From an uncultured Eubacteriales bacterium (GTDB lineage Bacteria; Bacillota; Clostridia; Oscillospirales; CAG-272), in NCBI GenBank assembly GCA_900545935.1, contig URAP01000007.1, positions 4,463 to 68,462 of the forward strand: DNA of 64,000 nucleotides, written 5' to 3'. This document shows, piece after piece, positions 13,440-64,000 of the stretch (positions within the stretch are counted from its first letter, which is position 1; each line of letters begins with the position of its first letter). A program made the position numbers and the translations under genes. The notes below the pieces were generated by a model. The model was not told the DNA's origin, did no database searches, and worked only from the letters and a program-made list of their open reading frames with translations.

Positions 13440-13466
13440 TCGTATAACCGAAGCTTAGGTTATGCA

Positions 13467-13588: not shown

Positions 13589-13617
13589 TTTACAATTTGA
13601 CAAATATGTGTTAAAAT
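13589..13617 (+). promoter_or_regulatory. sigma-A type promoter
   Basis: TTTACA, 17 nt spacer, TGt-TAAAAT. Confidence 0.55.
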
Positions 13618-13702
13618 ACCCTTGTTACATTAGCGAGAAAGATTGCTTTATATCATAAATACTACGGCGCTGCGCGCCGCGCGGCGGTGAAAGGAAATAA
13701 AA

Positions 13703-14452
13703 ATGAAGGCTATAATCATGGCAGGCGGCAAGGGAACGAGACTGTACGATAATGAACATCCCTGCCCGAAGGTACTCCGCGAGGCTTGCGGAAGACCGCT
13801 TATCTCTTATGTGTTCGATTCCATTGATTTTATTCCCGACGAGGATATTACCGTTGTTGTAGGCTTTATGGCTGACGAGGTAAAGGCGGCATTCCCGGAG
13901 CGCAACTATGCGCTGCAGGGTCAGGACGGCTACGGCACGGGCTATGCGGTCCGCTGCGCGATAGAGCAGTCGGGGCTTAAGGATTACAAGGGTGATGTTG
14001 TCATTCTCAGCGGCGATGTTCCGTGTATCAAGCGCGAGACGGTCGAGCAGCTCTGCCATGAGCACGAGGCAAGCGGCAACAGCTGCACAATGCTGACCTG
14101 CGTCAGCGAGAGGGCGCTGCCGTTCGGCAGGATCATCCGCGATGCGGACGGCAACATCACAGGTATACGCGAGCACAAGGATTGTACACCCGAGGAGAGG
14201 GCAATAAAGGAGCTGAACGTCGGTCTGTATGTATTCCGCTGCGACCGATTGGTAGACGCTCTCGGAAAGATAAATGCCGACAACGCGGCGGGCGAATACT
14301 ATCTGACCGATGTGCCGAAGATAATGCTCGAGTGCGGCGATAAGGTCGGCTCGGCAACCACCACCGACGAGCGCGAGCTGCTCGGTGTAAATACGCCCGA
14401 CGATCTTGCGACCGTTGAGGCTATAATTCGTGCTGAACAAAAGAATAACTGA
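13703..14452 (+). CDS. sugar-1-phosphate nucleotidyltransferase, similar to the GlmU N-terminal domain, without the acetyltransferase LbH domain
   Basis: MKAIIMAGGKGTRL, LSGDVPCI and EYYLTDVP motifs. Only 249 aa. Confidence 0.75.
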   Translation: MKAIIMAGGKGTRLYDNEHPCPKVLREACGRPLISYVFDSIDFIPDEDITVVVGFMADEVKAAFPERNYALQGQDGYGTGYAVRCAIEQSGLKDYKGDVVILSGDVPCIKRETVEQLCHEHEASGNSCTMLTCVSERALPFGRIIRDADGNITGIREHKDCTPEERAIKELNVGLYVFRCDRLVDALGKINADNAAGEYYLTDVPKIMLECGDKVGSATTTDERELLGVNTPDDLATVEAIIRAEQKNN

Positions 14453-41867: not shown

Positions 41868-41949
41868 TTTAAAAGCAATTTTTCTGCGCATATGACATGC
41901 TATGCGCACACACCGCAAGTGTGAAATGGAACTGGAGGAATCAATTTTC

Positions 41950-44900
41950 ATGAAGAAATCGCACGTTTTCAAAGCGCTTTCTGCTTTTCTCCTTGCCGCG
42001 ACTATCACCGGTACGTTTGTGCCGGTCTTTGCGGCGGGCGAGGATACGCAGAAGGGGTCGAACGGGGTCGATCTTACAAGTGTAACCCCGGCGGCGGACG
42101 ATTCCGCTGTCGGTGAGAGCACGAGAGGGTCGAACGGCCTCGGCGAGCGCACCGCTGCCGAGATCATGACCCTTGTCGACACCGACTCATACATGAATTA
42201 CAGTGAGCGCAATGCATCCAAGCCGAAAGCGAAGCAGACCGTTGTCATTCAGGGCTCGGATTACGACGCGGAGAGCACCACCGCGGCGGTTGAGGTTTAT
42301 TCCGATTATGAGGGACGTTCCAACTGTCTCTATACTCCCGAGACCGAGACGGTCACATGGAAGTTTACCGTGCCCGAGACCGGCAAGTATGCGATAAAGC
42401 TCAACTATTATACAGTCAAGGCTACTAATACCACGGTGGAGCGCATGCTCTTCATCGACGGTAAGCTGCCGTTCTCCGAGACCCGTTATCTCTACTTCCC
42501 GAGAACTTGGGAGTATGAGTACGTGTACGACGATGACGGAAATAGAACCTTCGACCACGATATGAACGGAAACGATATCCGTCCCGTAAGAAACGAGGTA
42601 TTCCAGTGGAGAGAGTATTATCTCCGTGACTGGGTCGGCTTTACGATGGAACCGTTCGAGTTCTACCTTGAGGCAGGCGAGCATGAGCTTACCTTTGAGG
42701 CGAACCGCGAGCCGATGATCATCGACACGATCACCCTCTATCCCTACATTGAGGCTTCCGATTATAACGAGGTTGCTCAGGGATGGGTAAACGACGGACT
42801 CAAGCTCGTTCATCTCGACGAGCCTATCAAGGTTCAGGCAGAGCAGCCTACGACCATCTCGATGCAGAGTATGTTTCCGGCGAACGACCGTACCTCCGCG
42901 CTCACCGAGCCGCAGGACCCGTCGCGTATCCGTTACAACGTGCTTGACTATGCAAACTGCAATATGTTCGCCACCTACAAGGTGACGGTTCCGGAAGACG
43001 GCCTCTACCGTATCGCTGTCAGATACCGTCAGAACGCCCTTATCGGAATGTTCTCCTCCAGACGTATATATATAAATGATGAAGTTCAGTTTTCGGAGGC
43101 GGAGCGGATCCGCTTCGTATATAATACCGGCTTCCAGTCCGAGGTGCTCGGAAACGAAGAACGCGAATTTGTCTTCCATTTTAATAAAGGCGAGAATACA
43201 GTGACCTTTGAGGCGGTTCTCGGAGATATGATCGAGTATGTCTACAAGATCCGCGGAATGGTCGATGAGCTGTATGAAGCATATCAGCTGTTACTCATGA
43301 TCACCGGTCCTAACCCCGATGCAAACCGTGACTACGGCTTCAGCCGTATAGCCGGCTCTGCTATACTTACTATCGCAAAGGCATCAAAGGAGCTGTATGC
43401 CATTGTCGATGAGCTCGTCGCTATAACCGGCGAGAAGGGCGACCAGGTCAATACGCTCGAGACGGCGGCGCTGCTCTTCAAGCAGATGTCGCAGGATGAG
43501 TACAAGATCGCGGGTAACTTCGTATCATTCAAAAACTACATCGTCATGCTTTCCAACTGGATGTACACATCACTGTCTCAGCCGATAAAGCTCGACTACT
43601 TTGAGATACTCGGAGATGAGGGCGTTGCTCCGCAGGCAGTCGCTTCCTTTAACCAGTCTGCATGGTTTGAGGTCAAGGCGTTCGTTATGTCCTTCTTTAT
43701 GGACTATACGACGATAGGCTTCAAGGCAGAGAGCGACGATGAGGTTTATGACGACTATATCACGATGTGGGCGACGAGCGACCGCGAGACGATGCTTATC
43801 AACCGACGCATAATCGACTCGAACTTCACACCGCAATATAATATAGGATTGACGATCAAGGTCATAAATGCCGGACTCGAGCAGGCGATACTCGCCGGTA
43901 TCGGTCCCGATATCTCGGATATGACCACGACGAACGCCATAACATGGGGACTTCGTACGGCGGTCGAAAAGCTCAACGATACAAACGATCCTTCGGTCGG
44001 CTTTGAGGGCTTCGACGAGGCGTGCGAGGATATAGATCCGGCCGCGCTCAAGACGTGTACGCTTTACGGCGTGACCTATGCGCTGCCTAAGACGATGGAC
44101 TTCCCGATGATGTTCTACCGCCTCGATATCCTTGCCGAGCTCGGACTCGAGATCCCGGAGACGTGGGATGAGCTGTACGACATGATGAGCGTTCTTCAGA
44201 ACAAGAAGCTCGAGGTCGGACTTCCCGTCGGACTTCCCGGACTTCAGGTATTCCTCTATCAGCAGGGCATTGACCTTTATACCGACGACGGTTGGCGAAC
44301 AAACCTCGATTCTCATGAGGCGCTCTCCGCTTTCGATACATACGCAGGCTTCTTCCGCAAGTACTCGAGTCCCGTTGCGTGGGATACTTCACGTTTCCGT
44401 ACCGGAGAGATCCCGGTCATGATGTCGAGCAACGGTGCTGCGGCTACTGCAAACCAGAGTGCGGTCAGCTTCTATAATGAGCTGATGAACTATGTCGAGC
44501 TCCGCGGACTGTGGGAGATAGCTCCGATGCTTGCAACTGTTGTCGAGAATGACGACGGAACTCTTTCGCAGAACTGGTCGAGCGTTGTGCTTGTCACCGG
44601 TATGATAATCCCGCGCGGCTCGAACAACCCCGAGTCGAGCTGGAAGTACCTCAAGTGGTACGTATCGAGCGATACTCAGGAGCGTATGCGTAACGAGACC
44701 ATCGCGGTTTCACCTCTGCCTACGACCAAGTATAATACGGCAAACACCAAGGTATTCCTCAATCAGCCGTGGACCGCGAGCGAGTATGCCGCAGTCTCGA
44801 AGCAGATGAAGCAGCTCTGCGGTATCACCGAGTATCCCGGACACTACATCGTTCCTACATATGTTAAGAACGCATTTATGGACGTGTACAACAGCGGTGC

Positions 44901-45054
44901 TGATGCATCTAACGCGATGCTTGACCGTATCTACGATATAAACCGTGAGATTTCACGTAAGCGTCAGGAGTTCGGTATGGATGCTTACGATATCTCGTAT
45001 TCCGGCGTTGATTACACCAAAAAGACCGGCTCCGAGACCACGGACGGCGAGTAA
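41950..45054 (+). CDS. very large extracellular solute-binding protein: two CBM-like beta-sandwich modules fused to a family-1 sugar SBP domain
   Basis: Start at MKKSHVF (GGAGGA RBS); the ORF is open from 41902. Signal peptide has no lipobox Cys. There are two similar modules (KFTVPETGKYAIKLNYYT...ELTFEA; TYKVTVPEDGLYRIAVRYRQ...TVTFEA). The C-terminal ~450 aa look SBP-like and permease genes follow. Confidence 0.7.
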   Translation: MKKSHVFKALSAFLLAATITGTFVPVFAAGEDTQKGSNGVDLTSVTPAADDSAVGESTRGSNGLGERTAAEIMTLVDTDSYMNYSERNASKPKAKQTVVIQGSDYDAESTTAAVEVYSDYEGRSNCLYTPETETVTWKFTVPETGKYAIKLNYYTVKATNTTVERMLFIDGKLPFSETRYLYFPRTWEYEYVYDDDGNRTFDHDMNGNDIRPVRNEVFQWREYYLRDWVGFTMEPFEFYLEAGEHELTFEANREPMIIDTITLYPYIEASDYNEVAQGWVNDGLKLVHLDEPIKVQAEQPTTISMQSMFPANDRTSALTEPQDPSRIRYNVLDYANCNMFATYKVTVPEDGLYRIAVRYRQNALIGMFSSRRIYINDEVQFSEAERIRFVYNTGFQSEVLGNEEREFVFHFNKGENTVTFEAVLGDMIEYVYKIRGMVDELYEAYQLLLMITGPNPDANRDYGFSRIAGSAILTIAKASKELYAIVDELVAITGEKGDQVNTLETAALLFKQMSQDEYKIAGNFVSFKNYIVMLSNWMYTSLSQPIKLDYFEILGDEGVAPQAVASFNQSAWFEVKAFVMSFFMDYTTIGFKAESDDEVYDDYITMWATSDRETMLINRRIIDSNFTPQYNIGLTIKVINAGLEQAILAGIGPDISDMTTTNAITWGLRTAVEKLNDTNDPSVGFEGFDEACEDIDPAALKTCTLYGVTYALPKTMDFPMMFYRLDILAELGLEIPETWDELYDMMSVLQNKKLEVGLPVGLPGLQVFLYQQGIDLYTDDGWRTNLDSHEALSAFDTYAGFFRKYSSPVAWDTSRFRTGEIPVMMSSNGAAATANQSAVSFYNELMNYVELRGLWEIAPMLATVVENDDGTLSQNWSSVVLVTGMIIPRGSNNPESSWKYLKWYVSSDTQERMRNETIAVSPLPTTKYNTANTKVFLNQPWTASEYAAVSKQMKQLCGITEYPGHYIVPTYVKNAFMDVYNSGADASNAMLDRIYDINREISRKRQEFGMDAYDISYSGVDYTKKTGSETTDGE

Positions 45055-45071
45055 TTACCGACAGAATAAAA

Positions 45072-45097
45072 GCTCTCCTGCCGCAGGGCGGGAGAGC
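45072..45097 (+). other. intra-operon stem-loop after the binding-protein gene
   Basis: GCTCTCC-tgccgcagggcg-GGAGAGC with no T-tract. Such hairpins commonly stabilise the SBP segment of the transcript. Confidence 0.4.
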
Positions 45098-45135
45098 GTA
45101 CGAGATATTCAGACTTAAACAGAGAGGTTTTTCCG

Positions 45136-46107
45136 ATGACAGAACAAGTTGCAGTCAAGGGTCAGCAGCCTGCTGAGGAAAAGAAAGAGAAAACGAAAAA
45201 GGAAATGACTCGTTTTCAGTGGACATGGCACGAAATGAAGCGCCAGAAGGTCGGCTATTACATGGTAATACCGTTCTTGATCATGTTCATCTGCTTTACG
45301 GTCATCCCTGTTCTGCTTTCTATTCTGCTCAGCTTTACTTCCTTTAATATGCTGCAGATGCCCAAGTTTATATTCCTTGATAACTATTTACGCATGTTTC
45401 TCGATGACGACCTGTTTATAACTGCGTTTAAAAACACGCTGATATTTGCGGTCGCAACGGGACCTACCTCGTATATACTTTCCTTCCTTGTTGCATGGTT
45501 CATTAATGAGCTGTCTCCGAGAATGAGAGCATTCGTAACGGTTATCTTCTACTCCCCCTCCATTGCCGGCTCTGCTTACGTTGTTTGGCAGGTTATCTTC
45601 AGAGAGGATATCTACGGCTATGTCAACGGTTGGCTGATGAAGATGGGCTTCATTTCATCACCTATCGCATTCTTCTCGAACGCATCCTATGTTGTTCCGA
45701 TAGTCATCATAGTTTCGCTGTGGTCGAGTCTCGGAACCGCATTCCTTGCATTTATCGCAGGTCTGCAGGGCGTTGACCGCCATCTCTACGAGGCAGGCGC
45801 GGTCGACGGTATCAAGAACCGTTGGCAGGAGCTGTGGTACATTACTCTGCCGAGTATGAAGAGCATGCTGATGTTCGGTGCGGTCCAGGCAATAACCGGA
45901 GCCTTCGGCTTCGGAGCGATAGTCGATGCACTGTGCGGTAACCCGTCGGTCGACTACTGCGCGTGGACGCTTACGCACCATCTTAACGAGTACATGACAA
46001 CAAGATTTGAGTTCGGATATGCTTCTGCGATTTCGCTTGTGCTGTTCCTGCTCTGCTTCGGATCGAATATTGCGGTCCAGAAATTCCTTTCAAAGGTGGG
46101 ACAGTGA
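45136..46107 (+). CDS. carbohydrate ABC transporter permease (MalF/UgpA-like)
   Basis: Six-TM protein with an EAA loop (EAGAVDGIKNRWQELWYITLPSM). Confidence 0.85.
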   Translation: MTEQVAVKGQQPAEEKKEKTKKEMTRFQWTWHEMKRQKVGYYMVIPFLIMFICFTVIPVLLSILLSFTSFNMLQMPKFIFLDNYLRMFLDDDLFITAFKNTLIFAVATGPTSYILSFLVAWFINELSPRMRAFVTVIFYSPSIAGSAYVVWQVIFREDIYGYVNGWLMKMGFISSPIAFFSNASYVVPIVIIVSLWSSLGTAFLAFIAGLQGVDRHLYEAGAVDGIKNRWQELWYITLPSMKSMLMFGAVQAITGAFGFGAIVDALCGNPSVDYCAWTLTHHLNEYMTTRFEFGYASAISLVLFLLCFGSNIAVQKFLSKVGQ

Positions 46108-46108
46108 C

Positions 46109-46981
46109 ATGAAGAAGACGAAAAAGCTCAGAACAAGAAAGCACGCCGTTGTCCTTAACCGAAGCGCAGGCGGCGACGCAGGCATTACCATACTGCTTGT
46201 AATTCTCGGCATATTCATGTTTCTGCCGATGTGGTTTACCCTTGTAAACTCTCTCAAGCCTCTCGGCGAGATGAGCCTTACTCCTCCGCGTTTCTACGTA
46301 ATAAAGCCGACGCTCAAGAATTTCGCCGATCTGTTTACGAACATCAACGCGACATGGGTGCCTATCTCCCGTTATCTCTTTAATACCATTTTTATTTCGG
46401 TAGGAGCAACGGTCGGATGCCTTGTGCTCGGTTCTATGAGTGCATATTCCATCTCGAAGATACGCTTCCCGGGCTATAAGATAGTAATGAACATCATCGT
46501 ATATTCGCTGATGATCTCCTCTACCATCTCGAGTCTTACAAACTTTATCGTATATGTTGCACTCGGATGGCTCAATACCTACACGATTTCCATCGTGCCG
46601 ATTTGGGCATCTACCCTCGGACTTTACCTGATGAAGCAGTTCATAGACAGCAATGTTTCCGACGAGATGATCGAGGCTGCCCGTATCGACGGTGCTAACG
46701 AGATGTACATCTACTCGCGCATAGTTATGCCGCTTGTAAAGCCCGCATGGCTGACGCTTATCATCACAACATTCCAGAACGTGTGGAACAGCGGCGCTTC
46801 TCCCTATGTATGGAGTGAGCAGCTAAAGACCTTTAACAGCGCGGTCGCAACCATTTCTACGGTTTCGACCGGTGCCGGCTCCGCTGCCGCAGTGCTGACA
46901 ATGGCTGTGCCGATCATAATATTCATCGTATCTCAGGCTCAGATCGTTGAGACGATGGGATCCTCGGGAATGAAGGACTGA
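46109..46981 (+). CDS. carbohydrate ABC transporter permease (MalG/UgpE-like)
   Basis: Start at MKKTKKL, overlapping the upstream stop (TGACATG). EAA loop EAARIDGANEMYIYSRIVMPL. Confidence 0.85.
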   Translation: MKKTKKLRTRKHAVVLNRSAGGDAGITILLVILGIFMFLPMWFTLVNSLKPLGEMSLTPPRFYVIKPTLKNFADLFTNINATWVPISRYLFNTIFISVGATVGCLVLGSMSAYSISKIRFPGYKIVMNIIVYSLMISSTISSLTNFIVYVALGWLNTYTISIVPIWASTLGLYLMKQFIDSNVSDEMIEAARIDGANEMYIYSRIVMPLVKPAWLTLIITTFQNVWNSGASPYVWSEQLKTFNSAVATISTVSTGAGSAAAVLTMAVPIIIFIVSQAQIVETMGSSGMKD

Positions 46982-46997
46982 GAAAGGAAGGCACTCA

Positions 46998-49103
46998 ATG
47001 CAGAAGAAAAAGAAAATAAGAGTCGCCTTTCTTATGCTGGCGATACTGATGCTTGTAACATCGGTTCTTCCGGTGTTTGCGGCATCATCCTATCAGACTT
47101 ATACCTACACAACATTCGGTATTTCCGCACCCTCGCCGGATGCATATACCCCGTATAAGACCTACCATGCCAAGGATATAGGCCTTGCCGGTGCTAACCT
47201 CGATAATCTTACCGATATCGAGGTGGATGATAAGAATAATGTATATCTCGCCGATCCCGGCAATAACAGAATTCTTATCCTTGACCCCTACCTCCAGTAC
47301 AAGTCTGCTATTCAGACCTTCGTAAACGAGGAGGGTATTCGCGATAAGCTCGCAGAGCCGAACGGTGTCTTTGTCACCGCAGAGAAGATATTCGTTGCCG
47401 ATACGAACAACAGCCGTATAGTTGTTTTCGACCGAAACGGAAGCTTCCTCTATCAGCTCCGTGAGCCGCAGTCTACCGTATTCCCGACCGGCTCTATCTA
47501 CAAGCCGATCGCGATCGCGGTCGACAATGCAGAGCGTATCTATGTCGTTTCGTCCACCACATACATGGGCGTTATCGTACTTGATTCGCAGGGCGAATTT
47601 CAGAACTTTATCGGTTCTCAGACGGTCTCGGTAAGTGCCCTTGAGCTTATGTGGCGTTCGTTCATGAGCGCAAAGCAGAGAGCACTCACCAAGAAGAACG
47701 TCTCGACCGAGTATAACAACATTACTATCGACGAGGACGGCTTCGTATATGTAACCACCTCTTCGATAAAGGAAGAGTCGCAGTACACAAGTATCAAAGG
47801 CGATACGACCTATGCACCGGTCAAGAAGCTCAATGCTTCCGGTACCGACGTTATGACGCATAACGGCTTCTTCGGTCCTTACGGCGAGGTCGCTACGAAC
47901 GCAATCGGAAGATCCACGAACGAGACCGGCGTATCGCGTGTCGTTGACGCTGCGGTAGGACCCGAGGGCACATGGTCGCTTATCGATGACAAGCGCTCGA
48001 GAGTCTACACCTACGACGACAGCGGTAACCTGCTGTTCGCTTTCGGTGCAAAGGGTCAGATGCTCGGTAACCTCTCGACCGTTTCCGGTATCACCTATCA
48101 GGATTCCAAGATACTGCTTCTCGACAAGAGTGATGCAAGTATTACGGTATTCAACCGTACCGAGTACGGAGATGTCCTTATCTCCGCTCTTCAGCACAAC
48201 AACGACAGGCAGTATGATCTCGCAGTTTCCGACTGGGAGACGATACTGCAGTATAACAACAACTTCGATACAGCCTATATCGGTATCGGTCAGAGCTATT
48301 TCCGCTCCGGTAACTGGTCTAAGGCTATGGAGTACTTTAGTTTCGCTGCCGATACCGATAACTATAACAACGCCTTTAAGATGTGGCGTCAGGAATGGAT
48401 ATCCAAGTACGCGCTTGTTATCCCTGTTGTAATCATCGTGTTCTTTGTACTCCTTGCCAAGTACTTCAAGTGGGCAGGCAAGGTCAACAAGGCTGCAACG
48501 CTCAAGCGCGGACGGCGTACCTATAAGGAGGAGCTGCTTTATTCGGCTCACCTTATCTTCCATCCGTTCGACGGCTTCTGGGATCTGAAGCATGAGAACC
48601 GGGGCTCGGTTCGCGGAGCACTGACCTTTATCGGTCTGACCATCGTTTCATTCTGCTTTAAATATGCAGGAATAAATGTGTTCTTCGAGATAATAGGAGT
48701 TATGCTTCCGATAATGCTCTTCGTTACCGCGAACTGGTGTCTTACGACACTGTTTGAGGGTGAGGGCAGCTTCAAGGATATCTTTGTTGCCACCGGCTAT
48801 GCCGTTGCGCCGCTGCCTTTTATGACCATACTCTCCACGGCACTTGCTAATGTACTTACCGCAGAGGAATCCGGCATACTCACTATGATTAACAATATTG
48901 CATACGTGTGGGTCGGAATACTGCTGTTCTTCGGCGTTATGATAACGCATGATTATCAGCTCGGCAAGAACATTCTTACCATTATCGGTACTATTGTCGG
49001 AATGATAGTAATTGTCTTTCTCGTAGCCCTGTTCGCAACACTGATAGGCAAGATCATCAGCTTCATTTCCAACATAATCACAGAGCTTTCCTTCAGGACA
49101 TAA
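46998..49103 (+). CDS. secreted NHL-repeat beta-propeller fused to a C-terminal YIP1-type multi-TM domain
   Basis: Signal peptide. NHL-like strands (VYLADPGNNRILILD, IFVADTNNSRIVVFD, RIYVVSS). A TPR-like segment. The C-terminus has about five TM helices typical of the Yip1 domain. Confidence 0.6.
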   Translation: MQKKKKIRVAFLMLAILMLVTSVLPVFAASSYQTYTYTTFGISAPSPDAYTPYKTYHAKDIGLAGANLDNLTDIEVDDKNNVYLADPGNNRILILDPYLQYKSAIQTFVNEEGIRDKLAEPNGVFVTAEKIFVADTNNSRIVVFDRNGSFLYQLREPQSTVFPTGSIYKPIAIAVDNAERIYVVSSTTYMGVIVLDSQGEFQNFIGSQTVSVSALELMWRSFMSAKQRALTKKNVSTEYNNITIDEDGFVYVTTSSIKEESQYTSIKGDTTYAPVKKLNASGTDVMTHNGFFGPYGEVATNAIGRSTNETGVSRVVDAAVGPEGTWSLIDDKRSRVYTYDDSGNLLFAFGAKGQMLGNLSTVSGITYQDSKILLLDKSDASITVFNRTEYGDVLISALQHNNDRQYDLAVSDWETILQYNNNFDTAYIGIGQSYFRSGNWSKAMEYFSFAADTDNYNNAFKMWRQEWISKYALVIPVVIIVFFVLLAKYFKWAGKVNKAATLKRGRRTYKEELLYSAHLIFHPFDGFWDLKHENRGSVRGALTFIGLTIVSFCFKYAGINVFFEIIGVMLPIMLFVTANWCLTTLFEGEGSFKDIFVATGYAVAPLPFMTILSTALANVLTAEESGILTMINNIAYVWVGILLFFGVMITHDYQLGKNILTIIGTIVGMIVIVFLVALFATLIGKIISFISNIITELSFRT

Positions 49104-49130
49104 GCACAAGGCAAAAAGGAGAAAAGATAG

Positions 49131-51947
49131 ATGAAAAAAATCAGAATAATCAGTCTTGCTCTTGCATTGCTTTCGGTGCTTTCGGCATCTGCTGTCTGCT
49201 CCTATGCGGCAGACAACGATACCGCGACAACGGGCGAAACAGAGGCAATAGACTATTTCAACCACGATTTTGCGACGCAGGAAGATAAGCTTGCGACAAT
49301 GAATCTCATGCTCGAGCTTTACGGCTATCAGCTGTATTTCGAGCCTACGACCGGAGAGGTCGCTTACCGCAACACCGAGACGGGCGCTATTACCTTTACA
49401 AACCCGTACAGCGTTGCAAAGAGCGGAGGCGGCGGAACCGCCGACGTAAAGAGTATGCTGCTCTCGCAGATAATACTCACCTATACCGAGAACGGCAAGA
49501 CCAGTACGATGTATTCCTACACCGAGGCTGCCGCTCGCGGTCAGATCAATGTAAAGTATGTAAAGAACGGTATTCGCGTTGAGTACGCTATGGGTCGTCT
49601 TGAGACCCGCCGCCTGCTTCCGCGCCTTATCGAAAAGTCGAAATTCGAGTCTATGATCCTTGTAAACTGCGTGGGTCAGCAGACCGGTGACGGTCAGGAT
49701 CTCGTTAAATATCTAAATGCATTCTACACGCTCGAGGATCCCGAGGGCAAGAGTCAGGCAGAGATCGACGAGATGAACGCAAGAGTTCCGATCACAAAGG
49801 ATATGGCTGTTTATCAGCTCCAGTCGGATACCTCAGAGCGTGAGATGAACATCATCGAGAGCTACATCAAGCTCTACTGCCCGGACTTTACCTATGAGGT
49901 GCTCGCAGAGTGCCACGATGAGGTACAGTATATCGGAACAGACAGCGATCCCGCACTTTTCCGTCTCTCGCTTGAGTACTACCTCGACGAGTACGGACTT
50001 CAGGTCAGACTTCCCGCAAACGGTATCCGTTTCAACGAGAGCACGTTCTCGCTTGACTCGATAAAGATACTTCCGTATTTCGGTGCCGCTTCTCAGGACT
50101 ATGACGGCTACACCCTCTTCCCGGACGGAAGCGGAACGCTGATACGCTTTGAGGATCTTGATTCCTCACTTACCATGAGCGGTAAGCTCTACGGCGAGGA
50201 CTATGCATATCAGGATGCGGCCTTTACCTATTCGCAGACTGTGCGCATGCCTGTATACGGACTTGTCTCCAACTATTACAGTGAAGAGACCAAGACCGAG
50301 ATCATTGACGGAAATGTTGAGTTCAACATCGTCCGCACCGATACCGACCGCGGCTTTCTTGCGATAGTTGAGGAGGGCGAGTCGCTTGCTTCCATTACGA
50401 GCGAGCACGGCGCAAACTCCATTCATAAGTTCAACTCCGCATATACTACGTTTTCACCCCGCCCTAAGGACACATACAACCTTGCCGATGCGATATCGGT
50501 AAGTTCGGATACGACATGGACGGTCGTGTCAAAGCGTAAGTATACCGGCTCTTATACGATCCGCGTCATTCAGCTCAACGATGCCAAGGATGAGGCGAAT
50601 TGCAAGACTACAAAGTTCTATGAGAGCAGCTATGTCGGAATGGCTAAGGCATACAGAGAATATCTCGAAGCTACCGGCAAGATCTCCCGCCTGACGGAAA
50701 AGGGCGATATCCCGCTCTATGTTTCGTCTTTCGGTGAAATTGATACCTATACAGCTATTCTTTCGTTCATTAAAAAGATTCCGAAATCCCTTACAAATAC
50801 CGATCAGATCAAGGAGATGTACGATTATTTCGCCGAAAACGGAATAACTAATGTCAACTTCCGTCTTGTCGGCTTCGGAAAAGGCGGACTTATCCGTCTT
50901 GCTGTTCCGTATCATGCGGACTTTGAAAAGGTCTGCGGCGGTAAGGACGGCTACCGTGATCTGCTCGATTATGCGGCAGAGAAGGGCTTCGGCGTATATC
51001 CCGAGTATGACTTCACTTATCTGTACGACTACTCTGCATTCAACGGCTATTCCGCAAAGCGTGATACCGTCAAATGTATAGACGGCCGTTATGCGACCAA
51101 GGCTCTGCTTTCCTCTATGGACCAGGGTATGGTAATCGGTCACTTCGACTGTATCTCCGCTTCCGCATTCGGACGTATGTTCAAGTCCTTTGATAAGGAT
51201 ATGACCGACATACTTGACGGACGCAGCACCGGAATCTCGGTCTCCACTCTCGGTACCGACCTCAACTCCGACTTTGATACCGATGAGCCTTACAACCGTG
51301 AGGATTCTAAGGCATTTACTCAGGAGCTGCTTCAGAATCTCAGCGATAAGTACCCGGTAATGATCGACGGCGGCAATTCATATGCGATCCCCTATGCTTC
51401 GCATATCCTCAGCGCTCCGATCGACTCCAGCCACTATACGAGAGCGAGCGAGACTGTCCCGTTCTTCGGAATGGTATATCACGGCTATGTGAATTATGCC
51501 GGCTCGCCTACCAACATGTCGGGCGACACGAACTACGAGAAGCTCAAGATGATAGAGAGCGGCGCATCTCCTTATTTCATGCTCTCCTATGAAAACACCT
51601 CGCTGCTTAAGGACTATTACCGCTATCTTAAGTATTATTCCGTTAACTATGAGAACTGGCGTGAGGATGCGGTCTCCATCTACAACGAGATCAACGCGCT
51701 CCTCGGCGGAAATGTTTCCACAGCGGTAATTTCCGACCATCAGTTTGTAAACGGCAGACGTGTTGCAACGGCGGATGAGATAGCCGACGGTGCAAACGAG
51801 AACTCGGATGAGTTTAAGGTAGAGGACGGCAGCATAGTCAAGGTAAGCTATGACTGCGGCGTCACCTACATGCTCAACTACAATTACTTTGACGTCGTGG
51901 CAGACGGTGTGACCGTTCCCGCGATGGGCTATGTAACTATTAAGTGA
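49131..51947 (+). CDS. large secreted protein of unknown function (recalls the DUF5696 proteins found in similar loci)
   Basis: Signal peptide, 938 aa, and no motif I can assign. The family name is recollection only. Confidence 0.4.
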   Translation: MKKIRIISLALALLSVLSASAVCSYAADNDTATTGETEAIDYFNHDFATQEDKLATMNLMLELYGYQLYFEPTTGEVAYRNTETGAITFTNPYSVAKSGGGGTADVKSMLLSQIILTYTENGKTSTMYSYTEAAARGQINVKYVKNGIRVEYAMGRLETRRLLPRLIEKSKFESMILVNCVGQQTGDGQDLVKYLNAFYTLEDPEGKSQAEIDEMNARVPITKDMAVYQLQSDTSEREMNIIESYIKLYCPDFTYEVLAECHDEVQYIGTDSDPALFRLSLEYYLDEYGLQVRLPANGIRFNESTFSLDSIKILPYFGAASQDYDGYTLFPDGSGTLIRFEDLDSSLTMSGKLYGEDYAYQDAAFTYSQTVRMPVYGLVSNYYSEETKTEIIDGNVEFNIVRTDTDRGFLAIVEEGESLASITSEHGANSIHKFNSAYTTFSPRPKDTYNLADAISVSSDTTWTVVSKRKYTGSYTIRVIQLNDAKDEANCKTTKFYESSYVGMAKAYREYLEATGKISRLTEKGDIPLYVSSFGEIDTYTAILSFIKKIPKSLTNTDQIKEMYDYFAENGITNVNFRLVGFGKGGLIRLAVPYHADFEKVCGGKDGYRDLLDYAAEKGFGVYPEYDFTYLYDYSAFNGYSAKRDTVKCIDGRYATKALLSSMDQGMVIGHFDCISASAFGRMFKSFDKDMTDILDGRSTGISVSTLGTDLNSDFDTDEPYNREDSKAFTQELLQNLSDKYPVMIDGGNSYAIPYASHILSAPIDSSHYTRASETVPFFGMVYHGYVNYAGSPTNMSGDTNYEKLKMIESGASPYFMLSYENTSLLKDYYRYLKYYSVNYENWREDAVSIYNEINALLGGNVSTAVISDHQFVNGRRVATADEIADGANENSDEFKVEDGSIVKVSYDCGVTYMLNYNYFDVVADGVTVPAMGYVTIK

Positions 51948-58637: not shown

Positions 58638-58666
58638 TTTACAAATCAATCTGCGCATGATACAAT
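58638..58666 (+). promoter_or_regulatory. sigma-A type promoter of the dockerin mini-gene
   Basis: TTTACA, 17 nt spacer, TGa-TACAAT. Confidence 0.55.
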
Positions 58667-58719: not shown

Positions 58720-59034
58720 ATGATGAACAGAATACTTCACCGCATATCCCCGCGTCTGATAGCGCTGCTCTCGGCGCTGATAATGCTGCTGTCCGTGCTG
58801 CCTGCCTATGCTGCCGGGTCGGATATAGACGGCGATATCGACGGTGATGGTGTTGCTATACCGAAGGTCGGTGATATCAACGCTGACGGCTCTGTCGATG
58901 TCAAGGATCTTGTAAGGCTTATGAAGTATATTTCCGGTGCCGATGTGACGATATGCGGCTCCGATGTGAACGGCGACGGCATGACCGATACGTGCGACCT
59001 TGTTCGTCTTATGAGGATAATTGCGGCTGCGTGA
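58720..59034 (+). CDS. secreted dockerin-only mini-protein
   Basis: Signal peptide (LLSVLPAYAAG), then only a two-repeat dockerin (GDINADGSVDVKDLVRLMKYISG...SDVNGDGMTDTCDLVRLMRIIA). Confidence 0.8.
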   Translation: MMNRILHRISPRLIALLSALIMLLSVLPAYAAGSDIDGDIDGDGVAIPKVGDINADGSVDVKDLVRLMKYISGADVTICGSDVNGDGMTDTCDLVRLMRIIAAA

Positions 59035-59180
59035 TACATCTGAGCTTTATTTTTCGACGGCACCTTGTCGAAATTTTCCGCGAATAAATATTGCTTCAAC
59101 CGAAGGCCGCATACCCGAATGCAGTCGTACAGCACACCAGTGTACGTACCGAATTATATAAAAAAACGGAGGACATTATT

Positions 59181-60572
59181 ATGAAAAAAACAAGATATCG
59201 CGTATCCCTGCGGCTCACTGCGCTGCTCTCTGCGCTGATAGTGTTGCTGACTCTCCTGCCAATCCATGCCGCCGACGGCAACGGAATGAATGTTAACCTC
59301 GGAAATGCCGCATGCCGAAAGGGAGAGGCGGTAGTGATACCGGTATCCGTAGAGAATAATCCCGGTATCTCTGCGCTCGGAATGTCGCTTGTATATGATG
59401 ATACAAAGCTCGAATTTCTCGATGTCGGATATGCAGACTTTTACGGCAGCATCGAGGTGGGAGAGAAGATACTGTGGATGAATAACAGCGATGTGCACGG
59501 TGACGGCGTTGTTCTTCAGCTCGTTTTCCGCGCCCTCGTCGATCCTGATCCGTCGCTCTCCGTCACCGTCGCCTTTGACGACGGCGATATTGTCAACAGC
59601 CGTGAGGAGAAGATCGAGGTAGGCGAGATCGGCACTGCGACCGTCTCTCTCGGCAGCTGTGAGCACGAGCTTGAGATCTTTGACGGTGCGCTGCCCGGTT
59701 GTGTGTATAACGGATATACGGATGGTGAGTACTGCACGAAATGTGATGTTTTTACCGTATTTCCAACCGCGGTACCGCCTATCGGTCATTGCTATATCGA
59801 CGGAAAGTGCGCATATTGCGGGCTTGAGATAGACGGTGTGCCTACGCTGACTCTTACCTCCGGCTTTGCCGGAAAGGGCGATAAACTTATTGTAAATGTA
59901 TACATAGTCAACAGCCCCGGTATCTCCGCAATGTCGATGCTTCCGGTTTATGACAAGTCGCTGTTTGAGCTGAAGTCGGTCAAATTCAACAGTAATGGCT
60001 TTAACGGTATCAGCGAATATGTCTCAAAGCTCGTTTCTGTAACGAATCATGATGTGTCAGGCACATTCCTCTATGCCACATTGATATTTAATGTTATCAG
60101 TGACGATTTTGTCCGCAGTGAAATAACGATGAATACCAATTCCAATTCGTTTGTCAACGCATCCGAGGAGCGGGTTGAATTTCAGGTCGAGCCGGCTACG
60201 GTGGTGCACAACTGCGTTGACGGACATCACGTCTATATTGACGTTCCGGGTGTTAAGCCTACTTGTACGGAGCCCGGCTATACCGCAGGCAGCTACTGCG
60301 TTTACTGCTATCAGCCTGAGGTTGCGTCCACCGAGATCCCCGCGCTCGGACATACATATGTTGACGGATATTGTAAGAATTGCGGCGAAAAGTGCCCGTT
60401 TATTATGGGCGATACCAACGCCGACGGCACGATAGACGTTAAGGATATCATTCGGTTAATGAAACATATCGCCGGAGTGGATATCGAGATTCAGGGCGCG
60501 GATGTCAACGGCGACGGCGCGATCGATACCCTCGATATCGTTCGTCTGATGAAGCTCATAGCAGAATCCTGA
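59181..60572 (+). CDS. secreted protein: two cohesin-like modules, each followed by a Cys/His-rich module, then a C-terminal dockerin
   Basis: Start at MKKTRYR (GGAGGA RBS). KGEAVVIPVSVENNPGISALGMSLVYDD and DKLIVNVYIVNSPGISAMSMLPVYD (cohesin-like). GDTNADGTIDVKDIIRLMKHIAG...ADVNGDGAIDTLDIVRLMKLIA (dockerin). Confidence 0.8.
   Translation: MKKTRYRVSLRLTALLSALIVLLTLLPIHAADGNGMNVNLGNAACRKGEAVVIPVSVENNPGISALGMSLVYDDTKLEFLDVGYADFYGSIEVGEKILWMNNSDVHGDGVVLQLVFRALVDPDPSLSVTVAFDDGDIVNSREEKIEVGEIGTATVSLGSCEHELEIFDGALPGCVYNGYTDGEYCTKCDVFTVFPTAVPPIGHCYIDGKCAYCGLEIDGVPTLTLTSGFAGKGDKLIVNVYIVNSPGISAMSMLPVYDKSLFELKSVKFNSNGFNGISEYVSKLVSVTNHDVSGTFLYATLIFNVISDDFVRSEITMNTNSNSFVNASEERVEFQVEPATVVHNCVDGHHVYIDVPGVKPTCTEPGYTAGSYCVYCYQPEVASTEIPALGHTYVDGYCKNCGEKCPFIMGDTNADGTIDVKDIIRLMKHIAGVDIEIQGADVNGDGAIDTLDIVRLMKLIAES
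60336..60554 (+). repeat. 219-bp near-identical direct repeat, copy 1 (3' ends of the two cohesin genes)
   Basis: Aligns base-for-base with 62610-62828, with about six mismatches by eye. Confidence 0.85.
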
Positions 60573-60595
60573 CCGAACGGCACGTTTTGATTCTA

Positions 60596-60641
60596 TATAC
60601 TCGGCTTTCCCATGTGTATGGGAAGTCGAGTATATTTTTTA
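60596..60641 (+). terminator. intrinsic terminator
   Basis: ATATACTCGGCTTTCCCAT-gtgt-ATGGGAAGTCGAGTATAT followed by T6. Confidence 0.75.
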
Positions 60642-60788
60642 TCCGATATTATATTACCGTAGGGATTCCGTGCAAATATTCGTGTTTTATGCTGACATCC
60701 GAGCCTTGTATAGATATGGAGAGAGTGTGAATTTTTCGTTTTTTTTTTTAATTTTGCGCCGCTGCGTTAACAAAAACACAATAAAATA

Positions 60789-60816
60789 TTGACAGTATAT
60801 TTTTGTGTGATATAAT
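60789..60816 (+). promoter_or_regulatory. sigma-A type promoter
   Basis: TTGACA, 16 nt spacer, TGa-TATAAT. Confidence 0.6.
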
Positions 60817-60914
60817 TATAAATGTGAAAAAGCGGTGCTTTTTCCTCAAATTATGCTGTCAATTCGTATATAATATCGAATTGCTGTAAAAACGGAAAGG
60901 AAAGTGAAATTAAA

Positions 60915-62846
60915 TTGCTTGAAAAATGCACTCTTCGAAGAAAACTGATTTCCTTTATGCTTGCGGCTGTTATGGTCGTTTGCATGATCCCGATCAGCGC
61001 AGCAAACGCAGTGATGATCTCGATCGGCAGTGCCGAGCTTGTAGTCGGTGAGACGATAGAGCTTCCGGTCACCGTCAGCAGCGATGTTGCAATCGGGTCC
61101 TTTGATGCGCAGGTCGTATACGATTCTTCCTATCTTTCGCTGACAAAGGTCAAAACCGGAGATTTAAACGGTATCATAATGGGCGGTAATAAGATCAATT
61201 GGGTGACTGCTACCGATGATGCTACTAACGGAACGATTTGTCTGCTTGTGTTCAAGGTTCTGAAAAAGCCGACTAAGCAGACAGAGGTCTCTCTTTCGTC
61301 TGTCAAAGTGCGTAATATCAACGAGGATATGATCGATACAAGCATCGTTCCCGCTATTCTCGGAGTTAAGCCCTGCATTCATCAGCTTGTTGTTGATGAT
61401 GGAGTTGAGCCGACCTGTACCGAGAACGGATGGTCCTCCGGCGTACATTGCTCTGTCTGCGGAGATGTCATAGTCGCGAGGCAGGAGCTCGCCCCGCTCG
61501 GTCATTCGTGGAAAGACGGCATTTGTACGCGATGCGGAGCGGCGATAACATTAGACGGACCGCATATTATTCTGGATGATACTGTGGTTGAACCGGGAAC
61601 AAGGTTTAGTGTAAAAGCACGCCTTAAAAACAATCCCGGTATCGTAGCCGCGACCTTTGACTTTTCTTACGATTCATCGCTGCTCAGCTTTGTTTCGGCG
61701 AAGCTATGCGACGGTGTTCCGGGACTTATTACTACGGACAAAAAGATCGTATGGGTAAACAACGGCACATATGACAGCGACGGAGATTTTATCGAGCTGA
61801 TTTTCAAGGCGAAGGATGATATTGTCGGGGCAAAAGACGCTTATGTTTCCGTTTCGAGCAAGACAGGCGGAATAGTTGATATTAATGAAAATAACGTTGG
61901 CTTTTCTTTCATTCCCGCAAATGTTCGTATAAATGAATGCGTGCATACCCCGGTGGATTTTGATGCCGTAATGCCTACATGTACAGCCGCAGGCAGCACC
62001 CCCGGACAGAAATGCAGCAAATGCGGTGTGGTAATTTCGGGCGGTGTTTCCGTTCCTGCGTTTGAACACGATTATGTATCCGGTGTGTGCACACGCTGCG
62101 GAGATGTGCTCGGAACGGCTCCGGCACTGACCGTACAAAATGTGGCTGCCGAGACAGGCGATACCATCACCGTTGATGTCACCGTAAATAATAACCCCGG
62201 TATTTCTGCGGGAGCATTCCGCATTAATTTTGATTCGAGTGTGCTGCAGCTTGTCGGTGCAAAGCCCGGAGATTTTCCGGGACTTACTCAGATTGACCGC
62301 AAATTCGTATGGTGCAACTCTTCCGAGATCGCATACGACGGCGTGATAGCAAGGCTTGTTTTCCGTGTGATCGGCGACAGCTTTGTTCGCGTACCTGTTT
62401 CGGTCACCTGCGGAGGAGGCGATTTTTCAAATAGCGTAGAGCAGCGGATCATTTTTGAATCGTATAGCGGCAGCGTGACCAGGCAGTGCGGTGATGAGCA
62501 CATGCCCGCGGCGATAGGAGAGGATATTCCGGCAACCTGCACCGAGGCGGGACATAAGGCGGGCAGAGGCTGCGTCTATTGCGGCACGGTGCTCGCCGAA
62601 CCGACAGATATCCCCGCGCTCGGACATACATATGTTGACGGTTATTGTAAGAATTGCGGCGAAAAGTGCCCGTTTATTATGGGCGATACCAACGCCGACG
62701 GCACGATAGACGTTAAGGATATCATTCGGTTAATGAAATATATCGCCGGAGTGGATATCGAAATTCAGGGCGCGGATGTCAACGGCGACGGCGTGATCGA
62801 TACCCTCGATATCGTTCGCCTGATGAAGATGATAGCCGATACCTGA
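60915..62846 (+). CDS. secreted protein: three cohesin-like modules, each followed by a Cys/His-rich module, then a C-terminal dockerin
   Basis: A TTG start gives a signal peptide with an RRK n-region; ATG 60957 is an alternative. GETIELPVTVSSDVAIGSFDAQVVYD, TRFSVKARLKNNPGIVAATFDFSYD and DTITVDVTVNNNPGISAGAFRINFD (cohesin-like). The dockerin is nearly identical to the one at 59181-60572. Confidence 0.8.
   Translation: MLEKCTLRRKLISFMLAAVMVVCMIPISAANAVMISIGSAELVVGETIELPVTVSSDVAIGSFDAQVVYDSSYLSLTKVKTGDLNGIIMGGNKINWVTATDDATNGTICLLVFKVLKKPTKQTEVSLSSVKVRNINEDMIDTSIVPAILGVKPCIHQLVVDDGVEPTCTENGWSSGVHCSVCGDVIVARQELAPLGHSWKDGICTRCGAAITLDGPHIILDDTVVEPGTRFSVKARLKNNPGIVAATFDFSYDSSLLSFVSAKLCDGVPGLITTDKKIVWVNNGTYDSDGDFIELIFKAKDDIVGAKDAYVSVSSKTGGIVDINENNVGFSFIPANVRINECVHTPVDFDAVMPTCTAAGSTPGQKCSKCGVVISGGVSVPAFEHDYVSGVCTRCGDVLGTAPALTVQNVAAETGDTITVDVTVNNNPGISAGAFRINFDSSVLQLVGAKPGDFPGLTQIDRKFVWCNSSEIAYDGVIARLVFRVIGDSFVRVPVSVTCGGGDFSNSVEQRIIFESYSGSVTRQCGDEHMPAAIGEDIPATCTEAGHKAGRGCVYCGTVLAEPTDIPALGHTYVDGYCKNCGEKCPFIMGDTNADGTIDVKDIIRLMKYIAGVDIEIQGADVNGDGVIDTLDIVRLMKMIADT
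62610..62828 (+). repeat. 219-bp near-identical direct repeat, copy 2
   Basis: See copy 1. It encodes IPALGHTYVDGYCKNCGEKCPFIMGDTNADGTIDVKDIIRLMK.IAGVDIEIQGADVNGDG.IDTLDIVRLMK. Confidence 0.85.
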
Positions 62847-62900
62847 CAGATAGTATTTAATTCCGAATAGTAAAAAACAAATTAATGTGAGGCGCGGAAA

Positions 62901-63686
62901 ATGAAAAATTCAAACGAAAATAAGTATACGAATAAGCTGAGAGCATCTCGGACGGTAAATATCGTTCTCTCCGTGCTGCTCATTCTTTCCGTGTGCATAG
63001 CCCCTATCTTTGCGGCGGCATCAAATCGTTTTGATGTCACCGGAGACGGGCTTGTTGATACCCGTGATATTGTCAGAATGATGAAGTATATTGCAGGTGC
63101 GATAGACGAGGACGGCAACCCGATAACCCCCGGGGATAATGATGACAGCGGCGACAAGCCGTCCGTCACGCCCGCATATAATACCGTATCCGTTAACGGC
63201 GTACCCGTGTATTCGTACGACGTATGGATGAATTTGTATAATGAAAACGGAAGCGGCGGAGGTGATGAGGAAACGAACAAGCTGATAAAGGATGATTCAA
63301 ATAAAGGCAAGGTTTATAGGGTCACTATAAGCAAAAAGCTTATCGACAGTTCGGTTGACGATACGGTAAAAGACCCGATAGAACCTACGATATTTGATTA
63401 CAACGATTCTTATTCTTTCAGTTGGAAGGATAAGAATCAGAAGAGTATCGGAAGTCAAGGCTCAAACGGCGGATGGAAGGATTCCGACGGAGTTATTCAT
63501 TATTCGGGAGGAATTCTTAAATATCTCCGTGACTATTCAATCGGCGACATTGTACCGGTATCTATGTGGGGAGAAGTAAGATATAACAGTAGTACTACGT
63601 CAATGGATAAGTATAACGGTACATATGATGGGCACGAAGGTTGGGTCAATTTCGACGCTATAATCGAATTTGAGATCGCCGAATAA
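62901..63686 (+). CDS. secreted protein with a single dockerin-like half-repeat and an unassigned C-terminal domain
   Basis: Signal peptide, FDVTGDGLVDTRDIVRMMKYIAG, then ~170 aa with no motif I recognise. Confidence 0.6.
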   Translation: MKNSNENKYTNKLRASRTVNIVLSVLLILSVCIAPIFAAASNRFDVTGDGLVDTRDIVRMMKYIAGAIDEDGNPITPGDNDDSGDKPSVTPAYNTVSVNGVPVYSYDVWMNLYNENGSGGGDEETNKLIKDDSNKGKVYRVTISKKLIDSSVDDTVKDPIEPTIFDYNDSYSFSWKDKNQKSIGSQGSNGGWKDSDGVIHYSGGILKYLRDYSIGDIVPVSMWGEVRYNSSTTSMDKYNGTYDGHEGWVNFDAIIEFEIAE

Positions 63687-63765: not shown

Positions 63766-64000
63766 ATGAGAAAAACAAACGAAAACAATAAAGGCGGAAA
63801 ACTCAAGACTTTCCGTACACTGAATGCGGTCTTGTCGGCGCTGCTTGTACTCTTAGTCGGTGTGGCTTGTGAAACGGTAAATTCGGGTGATGCTCATTAT
63901 ACCGAGGATAACACATTGACCGAAACGAAAGCAGATACCGAGAGCGGAGAGACACCGTCGACCGATTCGGGCAGCAATGACGGCGGTGAAAACCCGTCGA
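63766..64000 (+). CDS. putative lipoprotein, N-terminal fragment (runs off the window)
   Basis: ATG 63766 with a GGAGA RBS. MRKTNENNKGGKLKTFRTLNAVLSALLVLLVGVAC has a lipobox (LVGVAC). The frame is open to the end of the window, so it is absent from the ORF track. Confidence 0.55.
   Translation, partial: MRKTNENNKGGKLKTFRTLNAVLSALLVLLVGVACETVNSGDAHYTEDNTLTETKADTESGETPSTDSGSNDGGENPS

Follow-up and report, generated by a model that had tools for sequence, protein, structure and literature searches.

Four consecutive genes of cohesins and dockerins

We analyzed a 64,000-nucleotide stretch of DNA (hereafter called the window) from an uncultured Eubacteriales bacterium of the CAG-272 lineage (GenBank assembly GCA_900545935.1, contig URAP01000007.1, positions 4,463 to 68,462 of the forward strand), with a focus on four genes, i to iv, near its end. 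These are consecutive plus-strand open reading frames (ORFs) spanning 58720-63686, precisely as located by a first-pass annotation of the bare sequence, which had described their products as built from cohesins and dockerins, with an additional orphan domain in protein iv. The ORFs, Pfam, and custom hidden Markov models (HMMs) bear this description out (Table 1).

In Pfam, the Dockerin_1 family (PF00404, cut-off 22.9 bits) matches proteins i, ii, and iii with 33.6, 35.1, and 37.7 bits, respectively, while the Cohesin family (PF00963, cut-off 24.1 bits) matches two stretches of protein ii (41.5 bits) and three stretches of protein iii (93.8 bits, E 1.4e-26). The custom HMMs score the cluster cohesins at 94-121 bits per module. 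Over the six-frame ORFs, they find five cohesins, five cysteine-rich modules, three dockerins, and one half dockerin between 58.7 and 63.7 kb, and no further dockerin of the same sequence type (the RLMK type, described below) in the window. The dockerins of proteins i, ii, and iii consist of two repeats of ~22 residues, in each of which a Ca2+ loop (DxNxDGxxD...D) precedes a helix, and both loops are intact in all three; in the PDB, the sequence nearest to them is 6kg9 (E 1.9e-6). These modules are confirmed as true cohesins and dockerins, far beyond chance.

Gene ii most likely starts at the ATG at 59181, which has a GGAGGA site ahead of it. The resulting 463 residues agree with the public gene calls and replace the 493 residues first assigned to this protein. 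For gene iii, a start at the TTG at 60915 produces a well-formed signal peptide that includes an n-region (RRK), and the same is true of the ortholog P0001. Both proteins have the architecture of adaptor scaffoldins: they are secreted and non-catalytic, and combine cohesins with one dockerin. The absence of catalytic, carbohydrate-binding module (CBM), SLH, and sortase families from genes i-iv, as first described, stands in Pfam and NCBIfam; NCBIfam returns only trivial dockerin matches for the cluster proteins, and Pfam finds neither SLH nor LPXTG in genes i-v. Rfam finds no RNA families at 56-64 kb.

Table 1. Features of the window (Coh, cohesin; Cys, cysteine-rich module; Doc, dockerin)
Feature	Position	Strand	Description
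Candidate sigma-70-like promoter	58638-58666	+	Upstream of gene i; TTTACA-17-TG-TACAAT, 10/12; consensus match only
Gene i	58720-59034	+	104 residues: signal peptide (...LPAYA/AG), ~20-residue linker, two-repeat dockerin 58864-59031
Gene ii	59181-60572	+	463 residues: signal peptide, Coh1 59271-59651, Cys1 59649-59813, Coh2 59826-60209, Cys2 60213-60377, Doc 60402-60569 (Pfam, custom HMMs)
Direct repeat (247 nucleotides), copy 1	60330-60576	+	3' end of gene ii: Cys2 tail and dockerin
Extended -10 sigma-70 consensus	60789-60816	+	Upstream of gene iii; TTGACA-16-TG-TATAAT, perfect, 12/12
Gene iii	60915-62846	+	643 residues from TTG (gene callers: ATG 60957, 629 residues): N-terminal signal peptide, Coh1 60996-61367, Cys1 61368-61529, Coh2 61545-61931, Cys2 61932-62093, Coh3 62109-62483, Cys3 62484-62651, Doc 62676-62843
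Direct repeat (247 nucleotides), copy 2	62604-62850	+	3' end of gene iii; 95% identical to copy 1
Gene iv	62901-63686	+	261 residues: signal peptide, single dockerin repeat 63027-63125, acidic linker, ~170-residue beta-rich orphan domain
Gene v, 5' part	63767-64000	+	Crosses the window end; full 243 residues at L001:10866-11597
Lipoprotein-like protein	5534-8857	+	1107 residues: lipobox LLGSC, collagen and other repeats, Flg_new; membership uncertain
BspA-LRR/Flg_new surface protein	8874-13439	+	1521 residues: N-terminal cohesin 8976-9371, dockerin ~9390-9551, Cys module 9579-9728

Cohesin fold and the Cys6His2 module

The cluster cohesins are far by sequence from any solved structure, and we therefore modelled the Coh3-Cys3-Doc segment of protein iii with AlphaFold2, using a module alignment of 29 rows as the input. 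The model has a mean pLDDT (predicted local distance difference test score) of 88.4, with 94-98 in the cohesin and 88-97 in the Cys module. In a Foldseek search of the PDB, the top matches are all cohesins, with template modelling (TM) scores of 0.73-0.78 and root-mean-square deviations (rmsd) of 2.0-2.7 Å; 110 matches lie below 1e-3, and examples include 1aoh (TM score 0.77, rmsd 2.2 Å), 5n5p (0.78), and 2xdh of Archaeoglobus fulgidus (0.78). The modelled module adopts the nine-stranded beta-sandwich (jelly-roll) of cohesins. Pfam, the AlphaFold2 model, and Foldseek all agree on the cohesin fold, the check by HMM and structure prediction that the first-pass annotation had proposed.

What separates the cohesins from each other? 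Directly after every cluster cohesin lies a module of 55-60 residues that the first-pass annotation had not described. It follows the conserved pattern C-x-H...P-T-C-T-E-x-G...C-x-x-C-G...A-L-G-H...C-x-x-C-G, with six cysteines and two histidines, and is hereafter called the Cys6His2 module. Pfam matches it to A24_N_bact (PF06750), a zinc-binding ribbon, with 27.2 and 29.6 bits against a cut-off of 23, and AlphaFold2 models it confidently as small beta-hairpins. Homologs of other organisms carry the module in tandem, with as many as 10 copies per array; the arrays are placed between an N-terminal cohesin and SLH anchors (P0002-P0004), and also lie inside BspA-LRR, Flg_new, LytR, and peptidoglycan-hydrolase proteins. 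It recurs in many secreted proteins of Clostridia (homologs P0002-P0120), in the company of SLH, BspA-LRR, Flg_new, LytR, CHAP, GH25, and M23 domains. We read the module as a spacer or stalk. Since it matches no Pfam family except, weakly, A24_N_bact and recurs so widely, it is a candidate new domain family, possibly an undescribed extracellular zinc-ribbon stalk domain.

Gene iv, with a truncated dockerin, and its paralog

Protein iv had first been described as a dockerin half-repeat joined to an unknown domain, and both parts of this description hold. Only the first dockerin repeat is found (residues 44-73); it scores 17.1 bits in Pfam, under the cut-off of 22.9 bits, and 29.7 bits over positions 4-26 of our own dockerin profile. 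Judged by these profiles, gene iv carries a truncated dockerin, not the full module. The orphan domain finds nothing credible in a PDB sequence search or in Foldseek searches of the PDB (best E 0.06) and of viral structures (best E 0.008), and the AlphaFold2 model of the protein is mediocre, with a mean pLDDT of 66.8. Single-repeat dockerins can be functional in Ruminococcus flavefaciens, where they form the group-2 truncated dockerins (PMC12270676), and the half dockerin of protein iv therefore need not be dead.

Gene v, missed by the first-pass annotation, encodes a paralog of protein iv with 54% identity that lacks the dockerin repeat. The signal peptide of this paralog, which ends in ...LVGVAC, may be that of a lipoprotein. 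The family of proteins iv and v is confined to this lineage, in 24 clusters that are all at least 54% identical.

Origin of gene i and module turnover at the locus

How did a gene for a signal peptide and a dockerin arise? In a sister species (84% nucleotide identity in the CNNM gene), the position of gene i is occupied by a gene for a 631-residue scaffoldin with the order signal peptide-Coh-Cys-Doc-Cys-Coh-Cys-Doc. The mature N-terminus of protein i (YAAGSDID...) matches the N-terminal end of this scaffoldin, and its dockerin is 70% identical to the C-terminal dockerin of the scaffoldin, as compared to 61-63% to the dockerins of proteins ii and iii. Because both ends of protein i match the two ends of the 631-residue scaffoldin, it is best explained as an internal-deletion derivative of such a protein.

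Gene i is an intact short ORF in all of the strains seen. As compared to a strain that is 10% divergent in DNA, it has 17 synonymous and 14 non-synonymous changes, giving a dN/dS of 0.25 from 31 substitutions only, and all of the Ca2+-loop residues are kept. These substitution patterns indicate that gene i is not decaying and is under purifying selection. A variant of protein i with the lipoprotein signal LLLLSGC (P0447, L030:2217-2567), which would represent a lipid-anchored dockerin, has the same linker and dockerin, and is found on one 3-kb contig beside unrelated genes; it may come from a chimeric assembly, and we treat it as unverified.

The 3' ends of genes ii and iii form a 247-nucleotide direct repeat (Table 1). 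In the gut strain L006 (8554-9945), gene iii is missing and protein ii ends in the tail of protein iii (...KMIADT). Since protein ii of this strain carries the C-terminal tail of protein iii, the crossover lies in the 247-nucleotide repeat, and the strain has undergone a clean recombinational deletion of gene iii between the direct repeats. At the locus of the sister species (L024:12849-20089, L025, and L026), genes iii, iv, and v are missing from two of the three contigs. Modules are frequently gained and lost at this locus.

One dockerin type and divergent cohesins

The dockerins of proteins i-iv belong to one sequence type, DxNxDGxxDxxDxxRLMKxIA, hereafter called the RLMK type, which also occurs at a second locus described below. 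These dockerins are 61-91% identical overall, with 91% between proteins ii and iii, and vary at positions 10-11 of the repeat (VK, TL, VR, SR, TA, SA, TQ, TC, and TR). In cellulosomes, the residues at repeat positions 10-11 help to set the specificity. The five cluster cohesins share only 23-31% identity with one another, while each is 31, 40, or 53% identical to the cohesin at the same position of the ortholog P0001 from a sister lineage. Identities among the eight confident cohesins of the genome range from 25 to 41%. The divergence of the cohesins, together with their positional conservation, fits distinct partners and slot-specific recruitment better than homopolymerization. From this pattern of sequence identities, we therefore infer slot-specific recruitment in preference to a model in which every cohesin binds the same dockerin.

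What kinds of proteins carry the nearest dockerins? In a search of 1.8 billion representatives, poly-dockerin proteins dominated the matches, and the single-dockerin subset (33 proteins) was used. Among the domains of these 33 proteins are Flg_new, BspA-LRR, C-type and ricin lectins, Big_2, NAGPA, and peptidoglycan hydrolases, and no cellulase is present on any of them. A word-indexed search with the dockerin profile yielded 27 short fragments only, and was of no use for a cargo inventory. R. flavefaciens has 118 dockerin proteins of unknown function, including proteins with leucine-rich repeats (LRRs) and a dockerin, with a possible part in cell-surface structuring (PMC2930009). The adhesin-like relatives of the RLMK dockerins fit the non-cellulosomal use of cohesins and dockerins known from this species, and likewise the atypical systems of human ruminococci described below.

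A second locus with membrane-anchored cohesins and dockerin-bearing proteins

Through a 743-residue protein with a signal peptide, an N-terminal RLMK dockerin, and a right-handed beta-helix, we reached a second locus that is conserved in many gut metagenomes (L008-L020 and L027/L028; L008:1-22232 and L027:11270-17229). The 743-residue protein is filed with protein iii in the same "90% identity" cluster, which is a clustering artefact, as the two sequences are unrelated; the cluster sizes for these proteins are therefore untrustworthy.

The second locus encodes two proteins of 293 and 227 residues, each with a signal peptide, a cohesin, a Ser/Thr/Pro linker, a C-terminal transmembrane helix, and a Lys-rich tail. 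In addition, it encodes six paralogous Beta_helix/Pel9A-like proteins, one of which has a dockerin; a pair of DUF4838 proteins, of which one has a dockerin and one a GH67N/NAGLU_N-like N-terminus; and CBM9-like paralogs that end either in a transmembrane helix (349 and 340 residues) or in a dockerin (386 residues). A GH95-like protein and a GDSL esterase adjoin these genes. From its gene content, the second locus looks like a glycan-processing locus.

The CBM9-like paralogs and the pair of proteins iv and v have in common that the same domain bears either a transmembrane or lipid anchor or a dockerin, and the dockerin therefore appears to be a device for attachment to the cell surface.

The second locus and the window co-bin in the same two metagenome-assembled genomes (MAGs). 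The first holds the exact L008 proteins PWM72033.1, PWM72028.1, and PWM72026.1 (DBX45_09760, 09735, and 09725), together with a homolog of the DUF5696 protein of the window (DBX45_08955). The second, a Christensenellales genome, holds MFR3309324.1 (DUF4838) and MFR3310680.1, a fragment of protein ii. Moreover, an L008-family protein and the SSB protein of the cluster to which that of the window belongs both list 1,773,127 bp as the longest contig. Consistently, the tetranucleotide correlation between L008 and segments of the window is 0.90-0.96, equal to that within the window, as compared to 0.37-0.55 for the outgroup. The claim that the system has no enzymes is accordingly true of the four genes, but does not extend to the genome, where the co-binned beta-helix, DUF4838, and CBM9-like proteins carry the same dockerin type.

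Comparison with known cohesin-dockerin systems

Genes ii and iii resemble the adaptor scaffoldins of complex cellulosomes, such as ScaA of Acetivibrio cellulolyticus and ScaA/ScaB of R. flavefaciens, in that several cohesins lie between a signal peptide and a C-terminal dockerin, and that catalytic modules are absent; like them, they would be expected to hook into an anchoring cohesin and to multiply the docking sites. In contrast to those systems, no cellulases, CBM3, X-module, or SLH/sortase partner are seen here, the cohesins within one protein are only 23-31% identical, and the Cys6His2 module stands after each cohesin in place of a Pro/Thr linker or an X-module. The anchors are C-terminal transmembrane helices rather than the SLH or sortase signals of cellulosomes, and SLH appears only in homologs from other organisms. 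Neither dockerin-bearing cellulases or hemicellulases (GH5/9/48/10/11 and others) nor a cellulose-binding CBM on a scaffoldin was found in the window, L001, L008, and L027.

The system also has parallels in those of human ruminococci. Ruminococcus difficilis and its relatives have atypical systems with transmembrane anchors and few dockerin-bearing glycoside hydrolases (GHs) (bioRxiv 10.64898/2026.02.05.704116). With these and with the Ruminococcus bromii amylosome, the present system shares a host among the human-gut Clostridia and the use of C-terminal transmembrane helices to anchor single-cohesin proteins. Further common features are the scarcity or lack of classical dockerin-GHs, numerous dockerin proteins that bear LRR, Flg, lectin, or unknown modules, and the combination of a cohesin and a dockerin in one protein. 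It differs in its lineage and in its visible cargo, which is beta-helix (Pel9A-like), DUF4838, and CBM9-like, and the Cys-rich spacers are not reported in the R. difficilis work (bioRxiv 10.64898/2026.02.05.704116). No dockerin-bearing GH13 amylases and no CBM26/X25 scaffold modules of the R. bromii amylosome type were seen in the ~130 kb examined.

Cohesins outside cellulose degradation are also known from A. fulgidus (2xdh) and Clostridium perfringens (cohesin-like, 2jh2); while those are isolated pairs, the present genome has multi-cohesin scaffolds and a whole repertoire of partners. The single Ca2+-binding repeat of protein iv has its counterpart in the group-2 truncated dockerins of R. 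flavefaciens (PMC12270676), although the repeat of protein iv is of the RLMK type and lies N-terminal to an orphan domain. Taken together, the cluster belongs to a known kind of machine, and is set apart chiefly by the Cys-rich spacers, the visible cargo, and the lineage.

Proposed mechanism and alternative explanations

We consider it probable that the cluster encodes the adaptor scaffoldins of a cellulosome-like, non-cellulolytic, membrane-anchored docking system. Given that the same genome encodes single cohesins with transmembrane anchors, as well as cargo with dockerins, genes ii and iii are built like adaptor scaffoldins. The lack of a cellulase signature, the transmembrane anchors, and the uncharacterized beta-helix, DUF4838, and CBM9-like cargo speak for a general role in surface display and in the handling of glycans, more than for the breakdown of fibre.

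How would such a system work? We propose that the C-terminal dockerin of protein ii, like that of protein iii, docks onto a cohesin that is either anchored in the membrane or part of a further scaffoldin. Each of the five divergent cohesins would then recruit a different RLMK dockerin variant, so that the displayed proteins would be multiplied and ordered on the cell. Besides proteins i and iv, these would comprise the beta-helix, DUF4838, and CBM9-like proteins, and probably more. The Cys modules may serve as rigid, metal-stabilized spacers that replace the Pro/Thr linkers. Gene i would be a maintained dockerin-only derivative of a larger scaffoldin, the product of which could occupy or regulate a cohesin site.

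Several points weigh against this proposal. We infer the pairing of cohesins with dockerins in its entirety. The two loci are tied by co-binning, composition, and a shared listed contig, which is strong but not physical linkage. The cargo proteins match Beta_helix, Pel9A-like, and DUF4838 families only, and their role as enzymes is putative. Zinc binding by the Cys6His2 module is suggested by the A24_N_bact match (27-30 bits) and the Cys/His pattern only. Finally, gene iii, or the whole of genes iii-v, is missing from some strains and from genomes of the sister species, and the adaptors are therefore dispensable.

The first-pass annotation had favoured a matrix over a cellulosome. Its view of the cluster as non-cellulolytic and locally enzyme-free stands, while that of a stand-alone, self-docking assembly fits less well with the anchors and cargo that co-bin with it. 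In such an enzyme-free network, the dockerins of proteins ii and iii would bind the cohesins of the same proteins to build head-to-tail chains or a branched matrix, such as a pellicle or an adhesion layer, and protein i would cap the free cohesin sites. Proteins ii and iii each join cohesins to a dockerin, with dockerins that are 91% identical; the cohesin of R. bromii Amy4 binds the dockerin of the same protein, a documented case of self-recognition (PMC4611034); cohesin-dockerin dyads are frequent among the homologs (P0010 and P0017-P0025); protein i is a conserved, secreted, dockerin-only protein with a dN/dS of 0.25; and the nearest public dockerins are mostly on adhesin-like proteins. However, five cohesins that are 23-31% identical and positionally conserved across species are expected for different partners, and the membrane-anchored cohesins and the dockerin-bearing, putatively glycan-active proteins of the same genome form a conventional hierarchy. 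Moreover, gene iii is deleted in some strains, and protein i is accounted for historically as a deletion product. We consequently regard a self-docking network as unlikely.

Could protein i, and possibly protein iv, instead be a regulator that competes with the cargo for a specific cohesin and thereby tunes the complex, with proteins ii and iii acting as adaptors? Gene i is retained as an intact short ORF under purifying selection, with every Ca2+-loop residue conserved, and has its own candidate promoter. The same facts equally fit a neutral to mildly useful remnant occupying a site, the dN/dS comes from 31 substitutions only, and no precedent was cited. The role of protein i as a cap or competitor is possible but unsupported, and we give the regulator explanation only a small chance. 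The cluster could also be what is left of an ancestral cellulosome locus, in decay and no longer functional. The frequent module loss and rearrangement and the half dockerin of protein iv would agree with this reading, but we consider it highly improbable: the ORFs are all intact, dozens of independent human-gut assemblies carry identical proteins, no Ca2+-binding residue has been lost, the promoter consensus ahead of gene iii is perfect, the most suspect gene, i, has a dN/dS of 0.25, and single-repeat dockerins can be functional (PMC12270676).

The adaptor-scaffoldin proposal can be extended to an addressable scaffold for a non-cellulosic glycan, the presumed substrate of the beta-helix and DUF4838 proteins. 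In such a scaffold, one RLMK variant would address each cohesin slot, so that the composition of the complex would be defined, rigid zinc-ribbon spacers would hold the slots off the membrane, and protein i would tune the complex by blocking one of them. We put this extension forward as a speculation that is rather doubtful in its full form.

Other features of the window and the occurrence of the cluster

Outside the cluster, the first-pass annotation had counted further modules at 8.4-9.6 kb, for window totals of seven cohesin-like modules, four full dockerins, and one half-repeat. The dockerin counts stand, while six of the cohesins are confident and one is weak. The cohesin-dockerin pair at 8976-9551, in the 1521-residue surface protein, is supported by hhalign (97.2%, E 3e-11), and its cohesin scores 45.6 bits with the custom HMM. 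The dockerin of this protein is of a second sequence type ("AVYLLY"; DAVYLLYHVMFG). R. bromii Amy4 also has a cohesin followed by a dockerin, the same order as in this dyad, but at its C-terminus (PMC4611034). The 1521-residue protein belongs to the same cohesin-dockerin repertoire.

The weak module lies at the C-terminus of the adjacent 1107-residue protein (~8.4-8.86 kb); it scores 20.5 bits in Pfam, against the cut-off of 24.1 bits, and 27% in hhalign, and has no match with the custom HMM. This protein also contains Collagen triple-helix repeats (108.7 bits in Pfam), ~30 copies of "KSAYELA..GY.GT...WL.SL.G", and one Flg_new repeat, and may form a long stalk on the cell surface. Just upstream of the two giant surface-protein genes, at 4195-5079, lies the gene for a tyrosine recombinase (Phage_integrase, 79 bits), and the G+C content of the region 8000-14000 is 45-47%, as compared to 52-57% nearby. 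This region may be an acquired island.

The window also contains a sugar-uptake block (41902-51947), which encodes a 1050-residue solute-binding protein with a Golvesin_C-like region, ABC permeases, a 701-residue NHL/Yip1 membrane protein, and a 938-residue DUF5696 protein (443 bits). Downstream of gene v (L001:11733-16379) lie the genes for a Bce-like ABC ATPase, a 675-residue FtsX permease, an OmpR-type response regulator, and a histidine kinase. Bce-like modules are typical of the sensing of, or resistance to, peptide antibiotics, and this one is probably unrelated to the scaffold genes.

Over 56.9-64 kb, the window matches a 187-kb scaffold from a human-gut metagenome at 100% identity, and identical cluster proteins are found on dozens of independent gut assemblies. 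Close homologs are filed under "Oscillospiraceae bacterium" (DBX45_* tags) and "Christensenellales bacterium". A scan of the GTDB representative genomes with protein iii returned only a distant match in Acutalibacteraceae, with 32% identity over the Cys module and the dockerin.

Implications

Cohesin-dockerin systems have mostly been studied as degraders of cellulose or starch, and the present one occurs in a widespread, uncultured species of the human gut. The basic picture of scaffoldin function is unchanged by these findings. The gain and loss of modules at the strain level illustrate the evolution of a scaffold, and the divergent cohesins provide a natural set of possibly orthogonal cohesin-dockerin pairs. 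If the addressable scaffold is true, then the surface proteins of gut Clostridia would widely share a new domain, the Cys6His2 module, that serves as an extracellular stalk and binds metal.

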